Made by a program: the position numbers and the translations under genes. Under the pieces are notes generated by a model that did no database searches, was not told where the DNA came from, and was given only the letters and a program-made list of their open reading frames with translations. Below are positions 37,652 through 63,822 of a stretch of DNA of 64,000 nucleotides, one piece after another. Source of the DNA: a virus (taxonomy: Duplodnaviria; Caudoviricetes); the IMG/VR virus record IMGVR_UViG_3300033076_001145, positions 64,001-128,000 of that record; one strand, given 5' to 3'. Position 1 is the stretch's first letter; the number at the start of each line of letters is the position of its first letter.

Positions 37652-38033
37652 ACCCCAATCATAATAATATGTTCTTTAAATAACAAGTTAATTTCGTTAT
37701 ATTTATTATCATATATGGACCCGAGAGTTATTGCTGTTGTTAAACTAATTGAAACATTATACGAACCAAAAGGTATTGAGGCAAATGAAATTAATGATAA
37801 TGGATTTCCTCAGACATTGATTAATGTATATTTTGGGGAGATTGATGACTCATATATTACTAATCCTCAGCACCGTGATTCTAAGTATCTTAAAGAACGA
37901 AATTTTGAATTTGATATAAGAAGGAGTATTCTCGGATACTTAGGTGTTCAAACATCGGGCCTTGACCCTAAAACAGGGTTTTCCCCATATAAAGAAGAAG
38001 ACATAACCATTAATGTAGTATCTGAATTATAAT

Positions 38034-38363
38034 ATGAAATACATAATCAAAGAATCACAAATAAATAATGTTGTATTTTGGTATTTGGATAATCAGGATT
38101 TTATTAAGATTGAAAGGAGTCGTAATATTTATTTTGTTAATTCAGAAGGGGATGAATATGCTCAAATAAGACTTGATAAAGATGATGGCTGGTGTTTTAT
38201 TAATATTAATTTAATTAGAGAAATTTCTTCTTTCTTTTCTTTACAACCTTATGATTCTAAAGAAGTTATCGGCAGATGGGTTGATAATACCCTCCGAATG
38301 AAGGTCACAAACACCCAATATTCAAGAGGTAAAGGCCAGAAAAGGTTGATAATACCCAAATAA
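38034..38363 (+). CDS. Small paralog-family protein ending in a CRISPR-like repeat and spacer
   Basis: MKYIIKESQ...WVDNTLRMKVTNT plus a spacer-derived tail; near-identical to 38379-38696 except the tail. Confidence 0.75.
   Translation: MKYIIKESQINNVVFWYLDNQDFIKIERSRNIYFVNSEGDEYAQIRLDKDDGWCFININLIREISSFFSLQPYDSKEVIGRWVDNTLRMKVTNTQYSRGKGQKRLIIPK
38280..38357. CRISPR. CRISPR-like mini-array (36-nt repeat, 29-nt spacer, truncated repeat)
   Basis: GTTGATAATACCCTCCGAATGAAGGTCACAAACACC, then CAATATTCAAGAGGTAAAGGCCAGAAAAG, then GTTGATAATACCC. Confidence 0.6.
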
Positions 38364-38378
38364 CATATTTATAATAAT

Positions 38379-38696
38379 ATGAAATATCTAATTAAAGAGT
38401 CACAAATAAATAATGTTGTATTTTGGTATTTGGATAATCAGGATTTTATTCAGATTAATAAAGGTAATAAGATATATTTTGTTAATTCGGAGGGTGACGA
38501 ATATGCTCAAATTAGATATGATAAATCAGATGGCTGGTGTTTTATTAATATTAATTTAATTAATGAAATTTCTTCTTTCTTTTCTTTGCAACGCTCTGAT
38601 TCTGAAAAAATTATTGGTAAGTGGGTTGAGAATACCCTCCAAATGAAGGTCACAAACACCGCTTTGTTTGAAAAGTTGTATGATGATTTTGGTTGA
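38379..38696 (+). CDS. Small paralog-family protein ending in a CRISPR-like repeat and spacer
   Basis: MKYLIKESQ...WVENTLQMKVTNT plus a different tail. Confidence 0.75.
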   Translation: MKYLIKESQINNVVFWYLDNQDFIQINKGNKIYFVNSEGDEYAQIRYDKSDGWCFININLINEISSFFSLQRSDSEKIIGKWVENTLQMKVTNTALFEKLYDDFG

Positions 38697-38704
38697 GAAT
38701 ACCC
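38625..38704. CRISPR. CRISPR-like mini-array (36-nt repeat, 31-nt spacer, truncated repeat)
   Basis: GTTGAGAATACCCTCCAAATGAAGGTCACAAACACC, then GCTTTGTTTGAAAAGTTGTATGATGATTTTG, then GTTGAGAATACCC. Confidence 0.6.
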
Positions 38705-38725
38705 AAATAACATATTTATAATAAT

Positions 38726-39390
38726 ATGAAATACATAATCAAAGAATCACAAATTAATTTACTATCTGAGATTGAAAGAAATTGGATGGAAAAAGAATAT
38801 GAAGAAGGGTATAATGACATTAAAGAAATTTTGACATCATTTATTACAGGATTGTTTGATTCGTATGGTGAAATAGGTAATGAGATTGTTATTTATGATG
38901 AAGATAAGGAAGTAATATTTAGTTATATGAAACCAAGTGGTGAGTTATATTACGATTATAGTTTGAATGATTTATACAGTAAGTTATTTCCCCACCCGTT
39001 TTGGTCCGTCCATTCTAAATATGCAATGTCTGATGCGTTTGAACAATCATTCCCATATAAAGTCAATCGAGTAAAAGGTGCTCATATTGTATATCAATGA
39101 ACGAAGAAATGAAAAATATGATATGGAGTTATTTGGATAGTCAGGACTTTCATACCATTGATTATAATGGTAATATCATATTCTTTGAATCGTATGAAAG
39201 TTATAATTCTCGTATTCAAAGTGTTTTAATTAGTATCCACCGCCAAAGTAATGAATGTTATGTTAAACCAAAACTACTTAAAGAAATTGAGTCTTATTTC
39301 AATATCGGATGGGATGAGTCATTACCCTATGTTGGAAGCTGGGTTGTAAATAAAGTCGGATTTAATATCAAAAAATTCTATTTTGATTAA
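38726..39390 (+). CDS. Two further small paralog-family proteins (38726-39100, 39097-39390) without arrays
   Basis: Same MKYIIKESQ leader in the first; the second has YLDSQDF...W(V)VNKVG like 38034. Confidence 0.55.
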
Positions 39391-39396
39391 TAACTT

Positions 39397-41369
39397 CTAT
39401 CTTATGTCGTAGAAGTGTTTTACATTTCTTTTTGAATAACGGTCATTTAAAAAATCCCATAGTTGATTAAATCTGTTTTCATCATCACCACATTCTAATT
39501 CAAAGTTTTCACATACATCTTCTATTAAGTTTGATGTGACAAGATGATTAAATTTATATGGTGTCATTGCATTTAATTGTTTTTTCTTATCTGTGTATCT
39601 TTTTGAAGCCACCTTTAAAACATATTGATATATCTGTTCAAGAGTTTCCATATCTATCCTTCTTTTGAAGTAAATAGGTAGTTCTTTTTCTTCCCTCAAT
39701 ACTGATTCATTAATTACATTTCCCAAATTATCATATTTTAAAAGTTCAGTTTCTATAAAAACATCAGCATTTTTTTTCCTCACATCCCATTCAGTCATCC
39801 AAGTAGGACAAACAACAATATTTCCTGAAGTCCATTTATCAATATCTCTTGATATTTTTGTATCAAACCACGACTCAATGTTTGCCGCAGTATCATCAGA
39901 ATCAAAATAAATTTTAAGTAAAGGTTTATTATTATAAGTTGATTGTTCTATAAATGAAACCTCATCATATAAAACATGAATAATTTGCTTAACAAATTTT
40001 AATTTGTGTCCCTCGGATTCTTCCCTTAATATTCTTCTTATGTTTTCTTGTAGGTTCATATTTCTTCTTCTTTGTATTAACAATCTCCTATACTAACATC
40101 TATAGTATGTCCCCTCACTAAATTATTTCCTAATCTGTGTATAAGGGTGCTTATGTTATATATCGCTTGTCTTGTTTTTTGTTTGTTCACAAAACTATCA
40201 TCAGATAAATTAGGATAATATTTTGGTATTTCCACATATAGTTTTAACGAATGTAGAGTTGGTTTAATTTTAAAATCACATATATTTTCCATATCAGGAA
40301 CATCGAGTCTCATTATTGTATCAACAATGAAAATCATTTCCTTTTGTGTTCCAGTAAAACCAAGAACCTTATATAAATTTTCAACCCCTCCAAACATTTT
40401 TGCGGTTTGGTAAATACCCATATCAGAAACCAAATCTTTAATACTTTCTTGGTCTGAGGTCTCTTCCCTTAATATTGACTCATTTAACGGTTCCTCGTCC
40501 AATTTTGAATTTATGTATTTAATTAATGGCGCATCAAATTTATATACATCTTGGGACATGTTGTAATCTTTTAACAGTTCTTTGTTTGACGAAATAAGAT
40601 TTTGAATTGCGTCATAAAAGGCTTCACTTCTATTCTTTCCCCAACTTAAAGAAATTTTAACATCCCTAACCAACCGCTCAAGTTCATTAGCGGTCACCCT
40701 TCTTCTAATGTAATAAGGTAGTTCAGTTCCTTCCCTTAATATTCTTCTTATGGATTCTTGTAGGTTCATATTATGTATTTGACACTAATTTTTTATATCT
40801 ACTTTTAATTCTATCTTTATAGTAATCTTTTAAACTTTCCATAACCTCACCATACCATTGTGAATCTTCTGGCATTGTACTATATAGTTCGTAATGAATC
40901 CCATCCATTAAAATTGAAATTGTTACATCTATAAACCTATTTAAACTCATAATACTCCCATCTTCTTTATTTGTATTGCGTAACATATTTGATGACATAT
41001 CTAAAGACTCGCTAAACTCCCTCTCTAAATCATTGTTAGGGACTCTACGTCTAATCATCAGGATAGGTTTGGACTCTTCCCTTAGTATTCTTCTTATGGA
41101 TTCTTGCAGGTTCATTTCTTTTTCTTCTTAACACAATTAGGATATTTCTTACCAAACATTGTCTTCATTCCTTTTTGGGTATATCCCGCCCAACACTTTT
41201 CTTGGAGTTCAGATTTATGATTTTCATTTCCACATTTATGACATGTGTATGGGTCGTGTCCGCCTTCAGATAAATTCCAAGACCATCCACACTCCTGACA
41301 AACAATTTTTTTATTTTTGTTATGTAATTCTTCCAATATTATTCTTCTTATGGTCTGTTGTAAATTCAT
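39397..41369 (-). CDS. Four tandem genes with MNLQESIRRILREE leader (39397-40059, 40077-40769, 40771-41115, 41112-41369)
   Basis: Near-identical first 14 codons followed by different bodies; internal NESVLREE / NESILREE repeats. Confidence 0.7.
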
Positions 41370-41430
41370 ATTATTATAAATATCAATTAAAATAAACTGA
41401 AAAAAGTTTTTCAATTTAAGTTTTCTTCCC

Positions 41431-41438
41431 TATATTTG
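41431..41438 (+). promoter_or_regulatory. Bacteroidota-type -7 promoter element immediately before the array-gene operon
   Basis: TATATTTG 4 nt before ATG 41443. Confidence 0.6.
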
Positions 41439-41442
41439 CCTT

Positions 41443-42228
41443 ATGGACAAAGTATTAAAAGATTTCATATTCCAACAACTATATGAAGAATTGAGTAATG
41501 TGGAGATTATTCCATATAACTACTCCATTTGGTTTATTGACCGAAAAAACGAATATTGGTATTTTGAATTTGAAAAGGATGGAATGTTGTGGTGGAGATA
41601 TGGATTCTTTCTCAGTTTTTTTAAAGTGTTCTCCCTTAGTGATACCGATTTTGAACCCATTCTATCCGCTTGGGTGGAAGAGGTCTTAAATCATAAGGTA
41701 TCTACAACAGGTCGGGAGAAACCAAGGCAACTTTTTCTGGTGGAAGAGGTCCTAAATCATAAGGTATCTACAACCCAAACTTGTTCATATGGTTTGCCTG
41801 AGTGGGTGGAAGAGGTCTTAAATCATAAGGTATCTACAACCCACAATTGCCACGATATTCTACCAGCAGTGGTGGAAGAGGTCCTAAATCATAAGGTATC
41901 TGCAACTCGGCATTTTGACAACCGTTCTCATCCGTTGGTGGAAGAGGTCTTAAATCATAAGGTATCTACAACTTCTCTGAATTCAGGCCAAATGATTGGT
42001 ATGGTGGAAGAGGTATTAAATCATAAGGTATCTACAACCCAAGTCAGGGAGAACAAAGAATCGGTCATGGTGGAAGAGGTCCTAAATTATAAGGTATCAA
42101 CAACTGAGGACCGCATTTCTCAAAACCCAAGGAAGGTGGAAGAGGTCTTAAATCATAAGGTATCCTCAACCTACTTCGATTGGGATAAAAAGGTAATTTT
42201 GGTGGAAGAGGTATTAAAACAAAAATAA
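41443..42228 (+). CDS. Array-containing protein 1: about 77-aa aromatic N-domain plus 8 x (VEEVLNHKVSTT + 10 variable aa)
   Basis: Open frame through the whole array; 22-aa period. Confidence 0.85.
   Translation: MDKVLKDFIFQQLYEELSNVEIIPYNYSIWFIDRKNEYWYFEFEKDGMLWWRYGFFLSFFKVFSLSDTDFEPILSAWVEEVLNHKVSTTGREKPRQLFLVEEVLNHKVSTTQTCSYGLPEWVEEVLNHKVSTTHNCHDILPAVVEEVLNHKVSATRHFDNRSHPLVEEVLNHKVSTTSLNSGQMIGMVEEVLNHKVSTTQVRENKESVMVEEVLNYKVSTTEDRISQNPRKVEEVLNHKVSSTYFDWDKKVILVEEVLKQK
41673..42218 (+). CRISPR. CRISPR-like array 1: 8 full repeats plus 1 truncated, 8 unique 30-nt spacers
   Basis: Repeat GGTGGAAGAGGTC(T/C)TAAATCATAAGGTATCTACAAC at 41673, 41739, 41805, 41871, 41937, 42003, 42069, 42135, truncated at 42201. 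Exact 66-nt period. Confidence 0.75.
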
Positions 42229-42229
42229 A

Positions 42230-43081
42230 ATGGATAAAATATTAAAAGATTTTATATATCAACAACTATACGAAGAATTGAGTAATGTGGAGATAATTCC
42301 ACATAAGGATTCCATTTGGTTTATTGACCGAGAAAATGAGTATTGGTATTTTGAATTTGATAAGTCAGGAACATTATGGTGGAGATATCATTTCTTTACC
42401 TCGTTTTTTGAGATGTTCTCTATGAAACGCAATGAGTTTACACCCATTCTGTCCGATTGGGTGGAAGAGGTCCTAAATTATAAGGTATCTACAACGACCT
42501 TGATTAGCAAAGGATGCACGGACGAGGTGGAAGAGGTCCTAAATCATAAGGTAACTACAACAAATTTACATACGACACCTGTCCCTGGTAAGGTGGAAGA
42601 GGTCTTAAATCATAAGGTATCCACAACTTTGTCAGCCAATCTCTTGGCACCTTTAATGGTGGAAGAGGTCCTAAATCATAAGGTATCTACAACACGCTGT
42701 ACGGTAATTTATACAACTTCGCTGGTGGAAGAGGTCTTAAATCATAAGGTATCCACATCCAACGCCAAAGAAATTTTACAAAAGCAAACGGTGGAGGATG
42801 TCCTAAATCATAAGGTATCTACAACAATGGCCATCCAATCTTGCAAAGAGAATTGGGTGGAAGAGGTCTTAAATCATAAGGTAATAGAAACCCAAACAGG
42901 GAACGCACCTCCATTGTCATTTGTGAAGGATGTTTTAGATTATAAAGTAACCAAAACTAAAAGAGATTCATCAGTTGATTGGGTTAATGTGGAAGAGATA
43001 TTAACTCATAAGGTATCCTCAACACAAGGATGGGGAGTTGAGGATTGTCACTTGGTTGGGAAGATATTAAATCAAAAATAA
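42230..43081 (+). CDS. Array-containing protein 2: same N-domain plus 9 repeat/variable units
   Basis: Open frame through the whole array; paralog of 41443-42228. Confidence 0.85.
   Translation: MDKILKDFIYQQLYEELSNVEIIPHKDSIWFIDRENEYWYFEFDKSGTLWWRYHFFTSFFEMFSMKRNEFTPILSDWVEEVLNYKVSTTTLISKGCTDEVEEVLNHKVTTTNLHTTPVPGKVEEVLNHKVSTTLSANLLAPLMVEEVLNHKVSTTRCTVIYTTSLVEEVLNHKVSTSNAKEILQKQTVEDVLNHKVSTTMAIQSCKENWVEEVLNHKVIETQTGNAPPLSFVKDVLDYKVTKTKRDSSVDWVNVEEILTHKVSSTQGWGVEDCHLVGKILNQK
42460..43073 (+). CRISPR. CRISPR-like array 2: 9 repeats plus 1 truncated, 9 unique 30-nt spacers, decaying toward the 3' end
   Basis: Repeats at 42460, 42526, 42592, 42658, 42724, 42790, 42856, 42922 (degenerate), 42988 (degenerate), 43054 (truncated and degenerate). 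Confidence 0.75.
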
Positions 43082-43082
43082 A

Positions 43083-43718
43083 ATGGATAAAATATTAAAA
43101 GATTTTATATATCAACAATTATACGAGGAGTTATCAAATGTGGAAATTATTCATCATGGTAAATCAATATGGTTTATTGATAGGGATAATAAATACTGGT
43201 ACTTTGAGCTTGACACATTTAGTAACACTTTATGGTGGAGGTATGATTTCTTTGTATCGTTTTTCAAGGTATTTTCAATGGATAATGAAAAATTCACTCC
43301 AATTATTGCAAATTGGGTTGCAAATATATTAAGTGGTGATTTTGAAGTGTCGAAAAAAGGTTCGGAATTAATTGATGAGGATGGTGTTATAAATAATATT
43401 CTAAATAATAATGGAGTTACTCTTATACCAGCAAATGATGGTATATTTAATAACAGTAGAGCGGAAATTGTAATCAAATCGGAACCTGCAAGTAGGGATT
43501 GGAAGATAGGTGAAGTATTAAAAACTATATCTAAAACCTCACCTCCTTGGGCCTCTCTTATGGTTAATCAAATATTAAAATCCTCATCATCAGTTACTGT
43601 AAATAAAGTATCCAGCTTAGGGAGTTTCCGACAACAATATCATGTGGATGAGGTATTAAAAACAAAATCGTTGTCATACTATCCTGATAGTGTAATAGAT
43701 TCGGTATTAAATAAATAA
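43083..43718 (+). CDS. Third paralog with the same N-domain and an eroded repeat region
   Basis: First about 75 aa match 42230. Remnants include WVANILS, IGEVLKT, MVNQILK..NKVSS, VDEVLKTK and IDSVLNK. Confidence 0.75.
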   Translation: MDKILKDFIYQQLYEELSNVEIIHHGKSIWFIDRDNKYWYFELDTFSNTLWWRYDFFVSFFKVFSMDNEKFTPIIANWVANILSGDFEVSKKGSELIDEDGVINNILNNNGVTLIPANDGIFNNSRAEIVIKSEPASRDWKIGEVLKTISKTSPPWASLMVNQILKSSSSVTVNKVSSLGSFRQQYHVDEVLKTKSLSYYPDSVIDSVLNK

Positions 43719-43723
43719 AGTAA

Positions 43724-45947
43724 TTAACGACATTCCCTCTGATAAGTATTCTTTAAGTGCTCGGTGAATTTTTTACTAGCATAATCCACCATTAACTTAT
43801 AAGACTCTCCCCACTCAACAGTATTTTCATCCATATCGGAGAAGAAGTCCCAATACATAGATGTTATGGCTTTTTCAATTACCGTTTCAACATATTGTTC
43901 CTTTGACAATCCACAAACATTATATTGAACTTTAACTTCTTTAATTGCAAAATCAATCTGCCAATCAATTGCGTGTAGTCTTCTTTTAACACTATTTGGG
44001 ACCTCTGTTGATTCTTTTAATACTCTCTTTATGGATTCTCTGAGTTTCATATTATTATAAATATATTTATATTTATTAAATTATGAAGGATGACAATCAA
44101 TTAGAGGAACTTGTATTTGCATATCTTAATGCTCAGGACTTTGAAATTATCCATAAAGAAGGTTATCATAAATACGCATACTTTGTTTATGACAAGGATG
44201 ACGCTCACGCTCAGATAATGTATCACAAAACCTTTGTTGTGATTTCTAAAGAGTTGTCGGATGAAATTAATTCTTATTTCAATGTTCCTTCAGGTGATAA
44301 CGCATCAGTTGAAATTAAAAATTGGATTGAGTCAAAGTTAAACACTAAAATTGATATTTGGGATGTTAAAATATATGGTGGAATGATGGGCGATGCCTGG
44401 TTATCTGTTAATGAGGATTAAAATATCATATCTTCATCCATTTTATCCTGAATATCTTGTTGAGCAATAGGTAATAGTTCATTCATAATGATGTCATATA
44501 CACCTGGTAAATAAACTTCATCATACCAACTAAACAACTCTTCAACACTATCAAATCTTGTTTTGTCTTGTAACACTTTGAAATAGTCTCCTTCCCCAGC
44601 GATTTCAACAACTACCTGTTTACCAATTTTTCTACTTCTATCCTCCAAAGAAAACCAATCAATTTCAACAGGTGTATAATCAAGTCCATCCCAAAATGGT
44701 GTGGCCATTGCCGTAATAAGTTCAGTATAATTAGGGAGAAATTCTCCCGTTTTAATCTCACCATCCCAATAAAAAATACCATCCAAATTTGTTTGTATAT
44801 TAAATTCATTGTAGGTATCTTTCAATTTACCTTTTTCTAAATTTTCAATTAATAATTCGTTCGCAATTTTTGAATTGATTTCAATTTTTGAAAGTTTGAC
44901 TAATTGTGTCGTACTAACACCAAGGTATTTTTTTGCTTCATATATACCAACCTCGTCAATTAGTTCAAGAATAGAATTTTGAAATTTATCTTCAGAATCT
45001 TCTCTTAATATTTTTCTTATGTTATCCCTTAGATTCATATCATTATAAATACCACTTAAAATGAAAACCCCACTGAGTAGCGAATTCAATGGGGTTAATG
45101 TAGCCTAAACTACAGCGGTCCTAAGCCCACTTTCTTTAATCATAATCTTTTAAATTATACTTATCAATTATCTGTTGGAATATTTGATTTCTATATGTTT
45201 TTGCTAATGTTTCTCTTTTTGGTATAAAAGAATATCCAAATCCCGAACTTCCACTCATTCCTACGACTCTCCAAACAACTCTTCCGTCTACGTAATTAAC
45301 TTTTCGTAATCTAGCATCAAAAGAATATTGCATGTCATTTTTCCTACCAAATTTAAACTTACCTAATTTTTTTTCATCTTTACCAAAATCCTCCAAATTT
45401 AAGTGTTGGACAAGATTGTCATCAAAATACATATTAACCTCATTACCTTCTCTAATATAATAAGGTCCAACATTTTCATTTTTGTAAAATTCCTTTAGGT
45501 TTCCACCATAAACCATTTTTATGTAGTTTGAGACACTACCAAACATTCTTTCAATCTGATACCAACCTATTTCATTATAAAGACCTTTTAAGTCGTTATC
45601 TGACGGCTCTTCAGTTTCTTCTTTTAATATTTTCTTAATTAAATCTTTCATTAAAAAAATATAAAAATTTTATTTGGTAATATACTATGTTTCTTTTGAA
45701 AGTATTTTTTCAAATATACCTCGTTATCGTCGTTGGTCATTTTTCTTATTTGTCTCAAAAACTCGTATTCAACCCATGTATTGTAGTTTATTTCACTAAC
45801 TTCAAACACAGTATTACCATTACTATCCTGAAACTTAATTTTGTCAGGAAACAATACTTGTTTTAACTCACCGTATTCATCTTCAACAAACATGTCAATT
45901 AAATTGACCATAGCTTCTTCAATATGTTTCTCTTTTGACTCACTCAT
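43724..45947. CDS. Cluster of hypothetical paralog-family genes (43724-44050 -, 44083-44421 +, 44418-45038 -, 45136-45651 -, 45651-45947 -)
   Basis: IKRVLKE / IRKILRE / IKKILKEE leaders; 44083 resembles 38034 (YLNAQDF..YFV...AQI...WIESKL). Confidence 0.55.
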
Positions 45948-46334
45948 ATCTAAATAAATATTACCTCAACCATTTGACACTACAATTAATATTTCATATC
46001 TTTGAAAAAACAACTAATAATAAAAAATACTATGGGAAAAGGTTCAATTAAAGGTCGCTACGTATGTAAGGTAGGGTTTTATGATGTTTATGCTAAAGAC
46101 AATCTAAAGCCAGCAAAAGAGAGTAAAAATAAATGGGCAATCGGTGAGGTTATCTCAACTGATTACATCATCTATCACTCTAAGAAAATGGTAGAAAAAG
46201 GACTCCACACCAAAGAATTGGCAGTTAATAAAGCCAAAGAACTTTTGGGAGTCAAATACCGACAACAATACGGCCTGTGAGAATAAGAAACCCTTCGTAA
46301 TGAAGGGTTTTTAATTTATTAAGTATTTATAATT

Positions 46335-47048
46335 ATGTCAAAATATACCCAAGAGGAAATGTCAGTAATATCATCAATGATGATTACATTATTAGATGAT
46401 TATGATTATCACGGTATAACAATTCGTTTTTCAGGTGATTATAGTAAAAAGAGGATTTATGGTGTTGATTATCAACTTCCTGTATTTAAAATTGACAATC
46501 CAAATGATTTACCGTATTCAATGCCGACTATTATATTGGAATGGGCAGATGAAGAATTAGGTAATATAGGAAAACTTATTAATATACCTGATTTAAGATG
46601 GGAAAGGGAATTTTTGAAATTCTTTAATAAAACTGATAGGGATTACTACATTCCACCCAAAATGAAACAAGGAATTAAAAAGTGCTTAAACACTCCTGAG
46701 GTTGATGTTAAATTTAGAAAAGGTAATACTATATACACTGTTACTGGGTCATTTTCTACAGATGCAGGTTTTGAGATGTATTGGGACAGCTCCGAGGATT
46801 TCAGAATTTTTGTTGATTTTAATATAAGTAAAGTATGGATAGAGGACCTAAATTATAAAGACAAATATGGATTTTTGGAACTTGGTCCATATATTATAGA
46901 TTTACTTTACGATTTTCACTATGACGATAGTAGTATTTTTGAAGGTTTAGTTTGGCATTGTTTTGAAGATTTAATGGGATACCGTAGTTTTATTGACAGG
47001 GATTGGCAATTTATTGCAGTAACTCCAAATTTTGGTTTTCAGAAATAA
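46335..47048 (+). CDS. Hypothetical protein, paralog of 55338-56054
   Basis: Shared I(D/N)NPNDL(P/S)YS and YI(P/S)PK motifs. Confidence 0.55.
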   Translation: MSKYTQEEMSVISSMMITLLDDYDYHGITIRFSGDYSKKRIYGVDYQLPVFKIDNPNDLPYSMPTIILEWADEELGNIGKLINIPDLRWEREFLKFFNKTDRDYYIPPKMKQGIKKCLNTPEVDVKFRKGNTIYTVTGSFSTDAGFEMYWDSSEDFRIFVDFNISKVWIEDLNYKDKYGFLELGPYIIDLLYDFHYDDSSIFEGLVWHCFEDLMGYRSFIDRDWQFIAVTPNFGFQK

Positions 47049-47404
47049 TAGTTAAAAATCTTACAATCAGGATTTAAGTCTTTTAAATCAGGAAACATTA
47101 TATCACCAATACTATCGTTATTAATATGTGAAATATGTAATTCTGTAAAGTATTTGGCATACTTCTCATAAGTTTTCTTTCCTCCAATACACCAATCAAC
47201 ATCCAATATTAACTCGTCTCTTTCATCGATAATCACTTCTCTATTCTTTAGTTTTGGTAAATTAATTGATGTATTATACCCAACAAGTAATCTTTTATTT
47301 AATGTCTGTTTAATAAAATGTGACATATCTTGTTGAGAGTTCCATAACAACTTGTTATCTAAACCAATGTAAGAGAGATTGTTTTTGGCGATTATCGCTT
47401 TCAT
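47039..47404 (-). CDS. folA: Short dihydrofolate reductase
   Basis: AIIA....IGLDNKLLW...DM.HF..T....VG.NT...L.NR...IGG..Y...GD..FP. Confidence 0.8.
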   Translation of the reverse strand: MKAIIAKNNLSYIGLDNKLLWNSQQDMSHFIKQTLNKRLLVGYNTSINLPKLKNREVIIDERDELILDVDWCIGGKKTYEKYAKYFTELHISHINNDSIGDIMFPDLKDLNPDCKIFNYYF

Positions 47405-47433
47405 TTTTTTAATGTTAATTTATTATTAATTGG

Positions 47434-47835
47434 ATGATAGATGAAATTGTTAAACAGTCAATATTTAATTTATTATTTGATGACATGGATGGTGCTGAGG
47501 TCATTGACTTAGGTAAATCCATTTGGGTAATTAATAAAGAAACAAGGTATTGGTATTTCGAATATCAAACCGACACCAAAAATCTTTGGTGGAGATATGA
47601 CTTTTTCTTATCATATTTAACACCATTTGGTATGAATGAGGTTTGGTATCACATTATATTCTCCGAGTTCTTTAATTACTTCCTAAATCAAAAACAATTT
47701 AATTCGGCTGAGGTTAAAAAACTATGTGAAGGTGACTTTGTTTCGATATTGGAGATGGACCAAGTGTTATCTGATGATAGAGAACTACAAATCAAAATGA
47801 AACAAATTATAGATGAAAAAAGGTCAGATGTCTGA
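47434..47835 (+). CDS. Array-free paralog of the 41443 N-domain
   Basis: SIWVINKETRYWYFEY...LWWRYDFFLS matches SIWFIDR.NEYWYFEF...LWWRY.FF.S. Confidence 0.7.
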   Translation: MIDEIVKQSIFNLLFDDMDGAEVIDLGKSIWVINKETRYWYFEYQTDTKNLWWRYDFFLSYLTPFGMNEVWYHIIFSEFFNYFLNQKQFNSAEVKKLCEGDFVSILEMDQVLSDDRELQIKMKQIIDEKRSDV

Positions 47836-63276: not shown

Positions 63277-63822
63277 ATGAAAGATTTAATAAAGAAAATT
63301 TTAAAAGAAGAAACCAAAGAAAAGTTTGACTATGGTTGCGTAATGTTATATTACGATTTCCCAAAGATGGGAGAAATACACGAGTTAATTGACGATAACG
63401 ATGTTTATTACGAGGAAGGTGATAGAAGTTTCGGATTGGAAGATGAACCTCATACAACACTCCTATTTGGATTACACGATGATGTAACAGATGATGATGT
63501 AAGAAATGTTTTGAATAGATTTACCTATGGTAATTGTAAATTACAAAACGCATCACTATTTCAAAACCCTGACTATGATGTATTAAAGTTTGATGTATCA
63601 GGAGACAACTTACATAAGACAAATGATTTGCTTCGTAAGTATCCACACACCAATAATTTCCCTGATTACCATCCTCATACAACAATTGGTTACCTTAAAC
63701 CAAATATGGGTAAGAAGTATGTTGAGAAGTTAAAAGGTTTGAGTTATAATCTAACACCACAATATGCGGTATATTCAAAACCAAATGGGGATAAGGTTAA
63801 AATGGAGATTAATGTCAAATAA
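63277..63822 (+). CDS. 2H phosphoesterase (T4 57B/Acb1-like)
   Basis: Two HxT motifs (PHTTLLFG, PHTTIGY); MKDLIKKILKEE leader. Confidence 0.75.
   Translation: MKDLIKKILKEETKEKFDYGCVMLYYDFPKMGEIHELIDDNDVYYEEGDRSFGLEDEPHTTLLFGLHDDVTDDDVRNVLNRFTYGNCKLQNASLFQNPDYDVLKFDVSGDNLHKTNDLLRKYPHTNNFPDYHPHTTIGYLKPNMGKKYVEKLKGLSYNLTPQYAVYSKPNGDKVKMEINVK

Follow-up and report, generated by a model that had tools for sequence, protein, structure and literature searches.

Host DNA captured into a coding CRISPR-type array of a lake jumbo phage

Arrays and diversity generators described so far

CRISPR spacers are known as RNA guides, and in diversity-generating retroelements, shufflons and lamprey VLR cassettes a constant scaffold carries hypervariable patches which are renewed by a dedicated DNA process. 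The locus described here lies in a viral contig of 208.6 kb (32% GC, estimated 71% complete) from a jumbo phage of roughly 300 kb found in a lake. Positions below refer to the window, that is the whole 64-kb stretch of DNA that was analysed, unless marked as genome or by an L-number. The system works like CRISPR adaptation, does not belong to type VI-B and does not fit the type II-C signature of the host. With diversity-generating retroelements it shares a constant scaffold with renewed hypervariable patches, but the patches are whole 30-bp host inserts with repeat duplication, and neither a template repeat nor adenine-specific mutagenesis is seen. A template/variable repeat pair was not found, the spacers being mutually unrelated and without a second copy in the contig, and none of the ~50 phage ORFs scanned with Pfam was a reverse transcriptase.

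The type VI-B (Cas13b) array of Flavobacterium columnare, whose spacers are supplied in trans by a type II-C Cas1-Cas2 (Hoikkala et al. 2021, PMC8092290), resembles the phage array in its 36-nt repeat, its ~30-nt spacers, a leader at the same end with a T-tract in it, the lack of cas1 at the locus and the acquisition of host-chromosome spacers as well. It differs in that its repeat has a stop in the corresponding frame and 9 of its 23 spacers are off-size, whereas the array here is phage-borne and coding, with no Cas13b, hairpin or acquisition motif, in a host whose own II-C repeat is 47 nt long. In the F. covae record the cas13b gene is split over several frames (L027:877-4606).

Cas-less phage arrays, some of them against host chromosomes, are already known from huge phages (Al-Shayeb et al. 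2020, PMC7162821); similar to ours, they are compact, lack Cas1/Cas2/Cas4 or an effector and target host genes. The passages on these arrays treat them as guide-RNA sources and describe none as translated, unlike the array here, where the frame is strictly selected and the repeat appears to complete a protein domain. Campylobacter II-C arrays, stimulated by phage, capture host DNA as spacers during infection of a II-C host (Hooton and Connerton 2015, PMC4283603), as would be the case here. In Campylobacter, however, it is a non-coding array of the host that is filled, and a Cas4-like gene is carried by the phage; such a gene was not found in five phage records here. The non-CRISPR hypervariable interspaced repeat arrays (Altae-Tran et al. 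2023, PMC10910872) likewise alternate regular repeats with spacers that are hypervariable, and they too lack cas genes; these are RNA-producing and lie beside enzyme genes, while our array is inside an ORF and the sources of its spacers in the host are identified. Literature searches on translated or coding arrays returned no description, with subscription papers mostly outside their coverage.

The locus and its protein family

Two tandem genes with 17 in-frame units, each made up of a repeat of 36 nt and a spacer of 30 nt, as proposed in the initial annotation, are confirmed by the ORFs and by the spacing of the units, which is exactly 66 nt both from 41673 (8 units) and from 42460 (9 units). 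A third gene and the candidate regulatory elements complete the locus:

41431..41438, plus strand: Bacteroidota -7 promoter element (TAnnTTTG), predicted +1 at the A of the start codon
41443..42228, plus strand: gene A1, 261 aa, a 77-aa N-domain, 8 translated repeat-spacer units and a truncated end repeat
41443..41673, plus strand: N-domain coding region of A1, which also sits where a CRISPR leader would be
41616..41622, plus strand: T-tract, 51-57 nt before repeat 1, inside conserved Phe codons
41673..42200, plus strand: array 1, 8 units of 36-nt repeat and 30-nt spacer, youngest end at 41673
42230..43081, plus strand: gene A2, 283 aa, N-domain, 9 translated units and a truncated end repeat
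42460..43053, plus strand: array 2, 9 units, repeat decay increasing toward the 3' end
43083..43718, plus strand: gene A3, a 211-aa paralog, N-domain with a tail decayed beyond recognition

No further copy of the repeat was found in the contig when up to 10 mismatches were allowed. The position of the -7 element, whose consensus, together with a G at -5, was taken from PMC6847099, suggests that the A1 mRNA would be leaderless with +1 at the ATG. Such an element is present no more than 30 nt from the start, mostly 4-5 nt before the ATG, at 29 of 48 family starts, and these comprise nearly all operon-first genes. The T-tract may act as a leader element: its distance to repeat 1 is about that of the T-tracts in the leaders of the host II-C and the F. 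columnare VI-B arrays, and leader-distal poly(A)/poly(T) has been described (PMC8092290).

The related proteins number at least 1,159. Our family set, drawn from loci in IMG/VR and metagenomes, contains 96 arrays with 476 units in total and 208 different spacers; some of the loci were obtained by protein search and others (L010-L025) by a DNA pattern. In distant members the 22-residue period is kept and the repeat centres are altered, and arrayless paralogs bear the same end motif. One unit at L011:2103 and its relatives is 72 nt long by an in-frame 6-nt insertion within the repeat, which is inherited across many phages.

An AF2 model of residues 1-101 (N-domain and first repeat) is a single alpha/beta unit with pLDDT 92, and its last helix, residues 67-82, takes in the start of repeat 1; the model thus suggests that the first repeat completes the last helix of the N-domain. 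Structure prediction of the 22-aa repeat region, which the initial annotation had proposed, gave no confident model (pLDDT ~50; 58 for the full-length protein), and Foldseek with the full-length model returned no match. The best solved-structure match of the N-domain model is uninformative (Z 4.3), other matches being uncharacterised phage proteins only, and the family has no match in Pfam, PHROGs, Rfam, PDB sequences or Atlas features.

Other features of the phage may be recorded here. Many small proteins, at window 37715-47835 and genome-wide, start with motifs such as MNLQESIRRILREE or MKYIIKESQ, which we take to resemble capsid-targeting and prohead-protease signals, and the V-E-E of the repeat could also be a putative protease site. 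The contig starts with an 18-nt tandem repeat within a long minus-strand ORF (genome 1-80; L358:1-80). A candidate anti-defence gene, Tad6 (Pfam E 5e-16), is located at L361:16569-17327, and a weak Acb1-like match, below the cut-off, at window 63277-63822.

Host origin of the spacers and selection for read-through

The idea that the spacers are captured foreign DNA has gained support, and their source is the host chromosome. Spacer 1 was first matched at 29/30 in a bacterial MAG, and other matches were found in relatives of this MAG; 8 of the 17 window spacers match host chromosomal genes in exact register with 0-4 mismatches:

41709..41738, plus strand: spacer 1 of array 1, 29/30 to host miaB (named from motifs), antisense
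42039..42068, plus strand: spacer 6 of array 1, 27/30 to a host secA-like gene, antisense
42105..42134, plus strand: spacer 7 of array 1, 29/30 to a 457-aa host membrane-protein gene, antisense
42171..42200, plus strand: spacer 8 of array 1, 26/30 to a 612-aa host gene, sense, same frame as the host gene
42628..42657, plus strand: array 2 spacer, 28/30 to a host aroA-like gene, antisense
42694..42723, plus strand: array 2 spacer, 26/30 to a 409-aa host gene, sense, out of the host frame
42760..42789, plus strand: array 2 spacer, 26/30 to a 562-aa host gene, sense, in the host frame
42826..42855, plus strand: array 2 spacer, 30/30 to a host radC-like gene in three genomes, antisense

The sole mismatch of spacer 7 is synonymous in the phage frame, and a sister phage retains the host base; the mismatches of the spacer at 42694..42723 are synonymous for the host. 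The hosts are uncultured freshwater Flavobacteriales, with record labels that disagree at genus level, and these chromosomal matches uphold the Bacteroidota host group suggested at first. Independently of the spacers, the phage gene at L362:4860-5873 (genome 152860-153873) is 93% identical over 746 bp to the host MAG G006, which probably reflects a recent gene transfer between host and phage.

Family-wide, 28 spacer clusters match host genes in exact register, 15 of them antisense and 13 sense, with all six frames represented. Since the matches span both strands and six frames, the substrate looks like double-stranded DNA and most of the peptides are new. The host's own frame accounts for 7 of the 28 protospacers, as expected (25%) after removal of stops. 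A codon model had estimated 59% of spacers to be in-frame host-sense, which is not matched by the real protospacers, and for this reason we make no claim of host-protein mimicry. Capture by recombination through microhomology was likewise rejected: protospacer flanks agree with the repeat at 2.8-3.0 of 12 bases, where ~3 are expected by chance. A shared flanking motif of the PAM or PFS kind, which the initial annotation had proposed to look for, did not emerge, a weak pyrimidine bias at -3/-2 being the only signal. Cultured phages gave chance matches only, two unmatched window spacers had no match in IMG/VR, and no credible match was found between the spacers and the phage's own contig and flanks or between host array spacers and the studied phage.

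The arrays grow from one end, and polar gain of units in relatives, suggested beforehand as a check, was found: spacers missing from the closest array make up 49% in the leader third versus 22% in the trailer third (p 9e-4), and repeat mismatches rise from 1.3 to 3.5 from leader to distal end (p 2e-6). Array 2 has 5 spacers in common with relatives L028-L032. The gene of a sister phage (L406) is identical to that of array 1 at 226 of 231 N-domain bases and yet has only one trailer spacer in common with it; spacer turnover is faster than point mutation. Units are lost whole, and cassettes transfer between paralogs with N-domains only 53-70% identical. In repeat 1, codons rare in the genome (GTG, GAG and AAG, with 10%, 26% and 23% of genome use) are kept in 19/19, 18/18 and 18/18 cases, while third positions of the neighbouring N-domain vary, which indicates a DNA- or RNA-level constraint on this repeat; the 19 sequences behind these counts are related and not 19 independent tests. 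Constant-length repeats, unique spacers of similar length, copied DNA, polar gain and trailer decay are generic features of a CRISPR array, and this architecture and growth support the view that a gene end doubles as a CRISPR-type repeat. One leader-side in-frame spacer (L010:6884 unit, minus strand, compared with L019 and L021) occurs as three alleles that differ synonymously between near-invariant neighbours, which may point to repeated capture or refresh from different host alleles.

It is the reading frame which sets this array apart. All 17 window spacers, each of 30 nt and unique, are free of in-frame stops, as had been noticed at the outset; the chance of this, put by hand at 1e-4, is ~6e-4 on recalculation, because 65% of random host 30-mers are stop-free. 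Across family A, to which A1 and A2 belong, there are 0 stops in 1872 spacer codons in frame versus 74-159 in the other five frames, and 462 of 476 spacers are 30 nt long, 13 others being a multiple of 3 and one 29 nt. Open arrays number 94 of 96, single-gene loci included, and stops and frameshifts are absent even from distal units. Family A is under selection for read-through translation, and the protein-coding half of the original proposal stands, with frequent stops or frameshifts not seen in homologous arrays.

Selection on the peptide sequence itself is moderately supported. Shared spacer alleles differ by 38 synonymous versus 27 non-synonymous changes, with pN/pS 0.21 versus 1.2 and 2.1 in control frames, though many of the synonymous ones are found in spacers that have their third codon positions in phase with those of the host gene, and these could stem from host alleles. 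Among changes in spacers predicted to be in offset frames, 9 of 18 are synonymous, a weaker excess (p 0.01-0.06), and phage-versus-host mismatches in these frames (7 versus 5) carry no signal. Compared with simulated stop-free host 30-mers, D, E and G are enriched and L, M, I and C depleted.

A natural control is provided by family B, which has a homologous domain and a homologous 36-nt repeat that differs in sequence from that of family A, with one or two host-derived spacers. In the studied genome it comprises two genes in the window and five outside of it (genome 152395-159355; L362:4395-11355):

38034..38363, plus strand: family B paralog, repeat 38280-38315, 29-nt host-derived spacer 38316-38344 and truncated repeat; protein terminated by a frameshift
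38379..38696, plus strand: family B paralog, repeat 38625-38660 and 31-nt host-derived spacer 38661-38691; the stop falls in the next repeat

Family B spacers are mostly 29 or 31 nt (7 of 8 in the studied genome, 21 of 24 in relatives), and the 30-nt spacers of the relatives bear stops. As family B keeps such inserts, capture can yield 29-31 nt, and early termination is tolerated in this family of domains. Inserts that terminate the protein are retained in family B, whereas family A purges termination along the whole array.

The capture enzyme and the role of the peptides

We suggest that a Cas1-Cas2-type enzyme integrates the spacers. That no cas gene is in the window, as first noted, holds, and cas1, cas4 and cas13b were not found in the 71%-complete contig either: phmmer with host Cas1/2/4/9/13b gave no match in it, cas1 was found in none of 21 phage records (one complete), and a Pfam scan of 40 further phage ORFs revealed no integrase. 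The most likely candidate, which we favour slightly, is the host type II-C complex, which would take up fragments of the chromosome with no selection for a PAM. Type II-C cas9-cas1-cas2 with 30-nt spacers is present in 2 of 14 host-genus genomes, one of which shares the 93%-identical gene stretch with the phage. In that genome (G006) the locus (L142:6987-14560) encodes a short 1,184-aa Cas9 and has a 47-nt repeat, and an NAAAC-type PAM was inferred from spacer matches to a 29-kb complete phage (G235). Host II-C spacers are 30 nt long in 30 of 33 cases, and those of phage families A and B 29-31 nt. The repeats, 47 nt in the host versus 36 nt in the phage, are alike only in their terminal motifs GTTG...ACAAC, the phage repeat itself beginning with GGTG, and GTTTN precedes 6 of 9 host II-C protospacers versus 0 of 27 phage ones, a motif drawn from one host genome. 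The filling of a cas1-less VI-B array by a II-C system is documented, cross-filling being doubtful where repeat lengths differ (PMC8092290). An unrecognised phage enzyme is a less probable but serious candidate. One genome of the host family (L136, G049) also has a second locus with cas1-cas2-cas4, which is type V-like; its repeat measures 36 nt and its spacers 25-30 nt. Looking for host arrays with a loose pattern gave no useful information.

The data show that a coding array captures host DNA in a polar manner and is selected for read-through. During infection, host double-stranded DNA pieces of ~30 bp, from either strand, are inserted at the junction of the N-domain and the first repeat, and the 36-bp repeat is duplicated; older units move 3'-ward, decay, are deleted whole or shift from one paralog to another. 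The inserts that survive in family A are 30 nt long and free of stops, and therefore each capture lengthens the chain of 22-residue modules behind the folded domain by a peptide of 10 residues, mostly one never translated before. The genes may be transcribed early by host RNA polymerase, and the product could be a renewable peptide display that binds or decoys host proteins, with useful or harmless peptides retained. As a whole, a peptide-diversifying system built on CRISPR-type spacer capture, with an integrase of the Cas1-Cas2 type, genes expressed early and peptides displayed for host takeover or counter-defence, is the explanation we hold to be somewhat more probable than its opposite. The earlier proposal of spacer integration as a protein diversifier is borne out for capture and read-through selection, and for peptide function it is a plausible extension. 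A more specific form, a phage-run peptide library in which a capture reaction, possibly by an unrecognised PAM-free phage integrase, makes de novo peptides from random 30-bp host pieces, selected for binding or blocking host proteins, we put forward tentatively, with a little less than even confidence.

Another reading, rather unlikely in our judgement, takes the array for a decoy or passive record: the leader-repeat junction would be a sink for host Cas1-Cas2 (an anti-adaptation sponge), or be filled accidentally, with the peptides as filler and the open frame protecting merely the N-domain protein, mRNA stability or downstream genes. The nucleotide-level conservation of repeat 1, the many paralogous sites per genome, the near-random peptide composition, hardly altered by spacer age, and the weak peptide-selection signal in offset frames agree with a sink, and host-DNA decoying of II-C adaptation has a precedent (PMC4283603). 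However, a sink needs no translation, and neither stops nor frameshifts occur even in units far from the leader or at loci of a single gene, for which polarity can play no part. Family B, moreover, shows that early termination is tolerated, and cas1 was found in only 2 of 14 host-genus genomes.

The dual mRNA/crRNA locus of the initial annotation is not supported, and a guide-RNA locus in general, whose repeat-spacer RNAs would direct a host or phage effector (Cas13b-like or other) at host genes while translation shields the transcript from termination, seems improbable to us. The likeness to type VI-B stands as far as the repeat goes: it is identical to the F. columnare repeat, which lies beside cas13b, at 25 of 36 positions and over the last 12 nt, in the same leader orientation, and combines the VI-B-type 36 nt with 30-nt spacers. 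The spacers, moreover, target the host and none matches the phage's own contig, as in the arrays of huge phages reported against host chromosomes (PMC7162821). The likeness fails for Cas13b, found in 0 of 236 host-family genomes (incomplete MAGs) and 0 of 3 phage records by a search whose positive control worked, and a stable stem-loop and a bias to mRNA-complementary spacers are lacking as well. The repeat, supposed earlier to fold as RNA, forms a hairpin no better than shuffles (z -0.42 to -0.12 in the window and -0.15 to +0.61 in relatives versus -2.5 for F. columnare VI-B). Matches with up to 3 mismatches lean to antisense, 14 versus 8, not significantly, and the balance is 15 to 13 overall. 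There is no PAM or flanking motif, and bases in the repeat centre change freely, with the pattern of amino acids being preserved.

An ordinary repeat protein, grown by gradual divergence or recombination shuffling and like CRISPR by chance, is hardly credible: cassettes do move between the diverged paralogs, and arrayless ones carry the end motif, but exact-register copies of host genes in six frames, without flanking homology and gained at one end, refute ordinary repeat divergence as the source of new units.

Returning to the peptide-diversifying reading, the capture of spacers seems to supply phage proteins with new peptides of 10 residues and would be a source of new protein sequence, in which peptides are expressed from strands and frames of host genes that were non-coding, each capture being a dated step. 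It may be looked at as a natural experiment on the de novo origin of proteins and as a possible counter-defence strategy, perhaps with a PAM-free, fixed-length integrase. CRISPR finders and gene callers each detect half of such a system, and the arrays identify the hosts of uncultured jumbo phages. If the phage-run peptide library is true, it would add a class to the diversity generators and give CRISPR adaptation a new kind of output.
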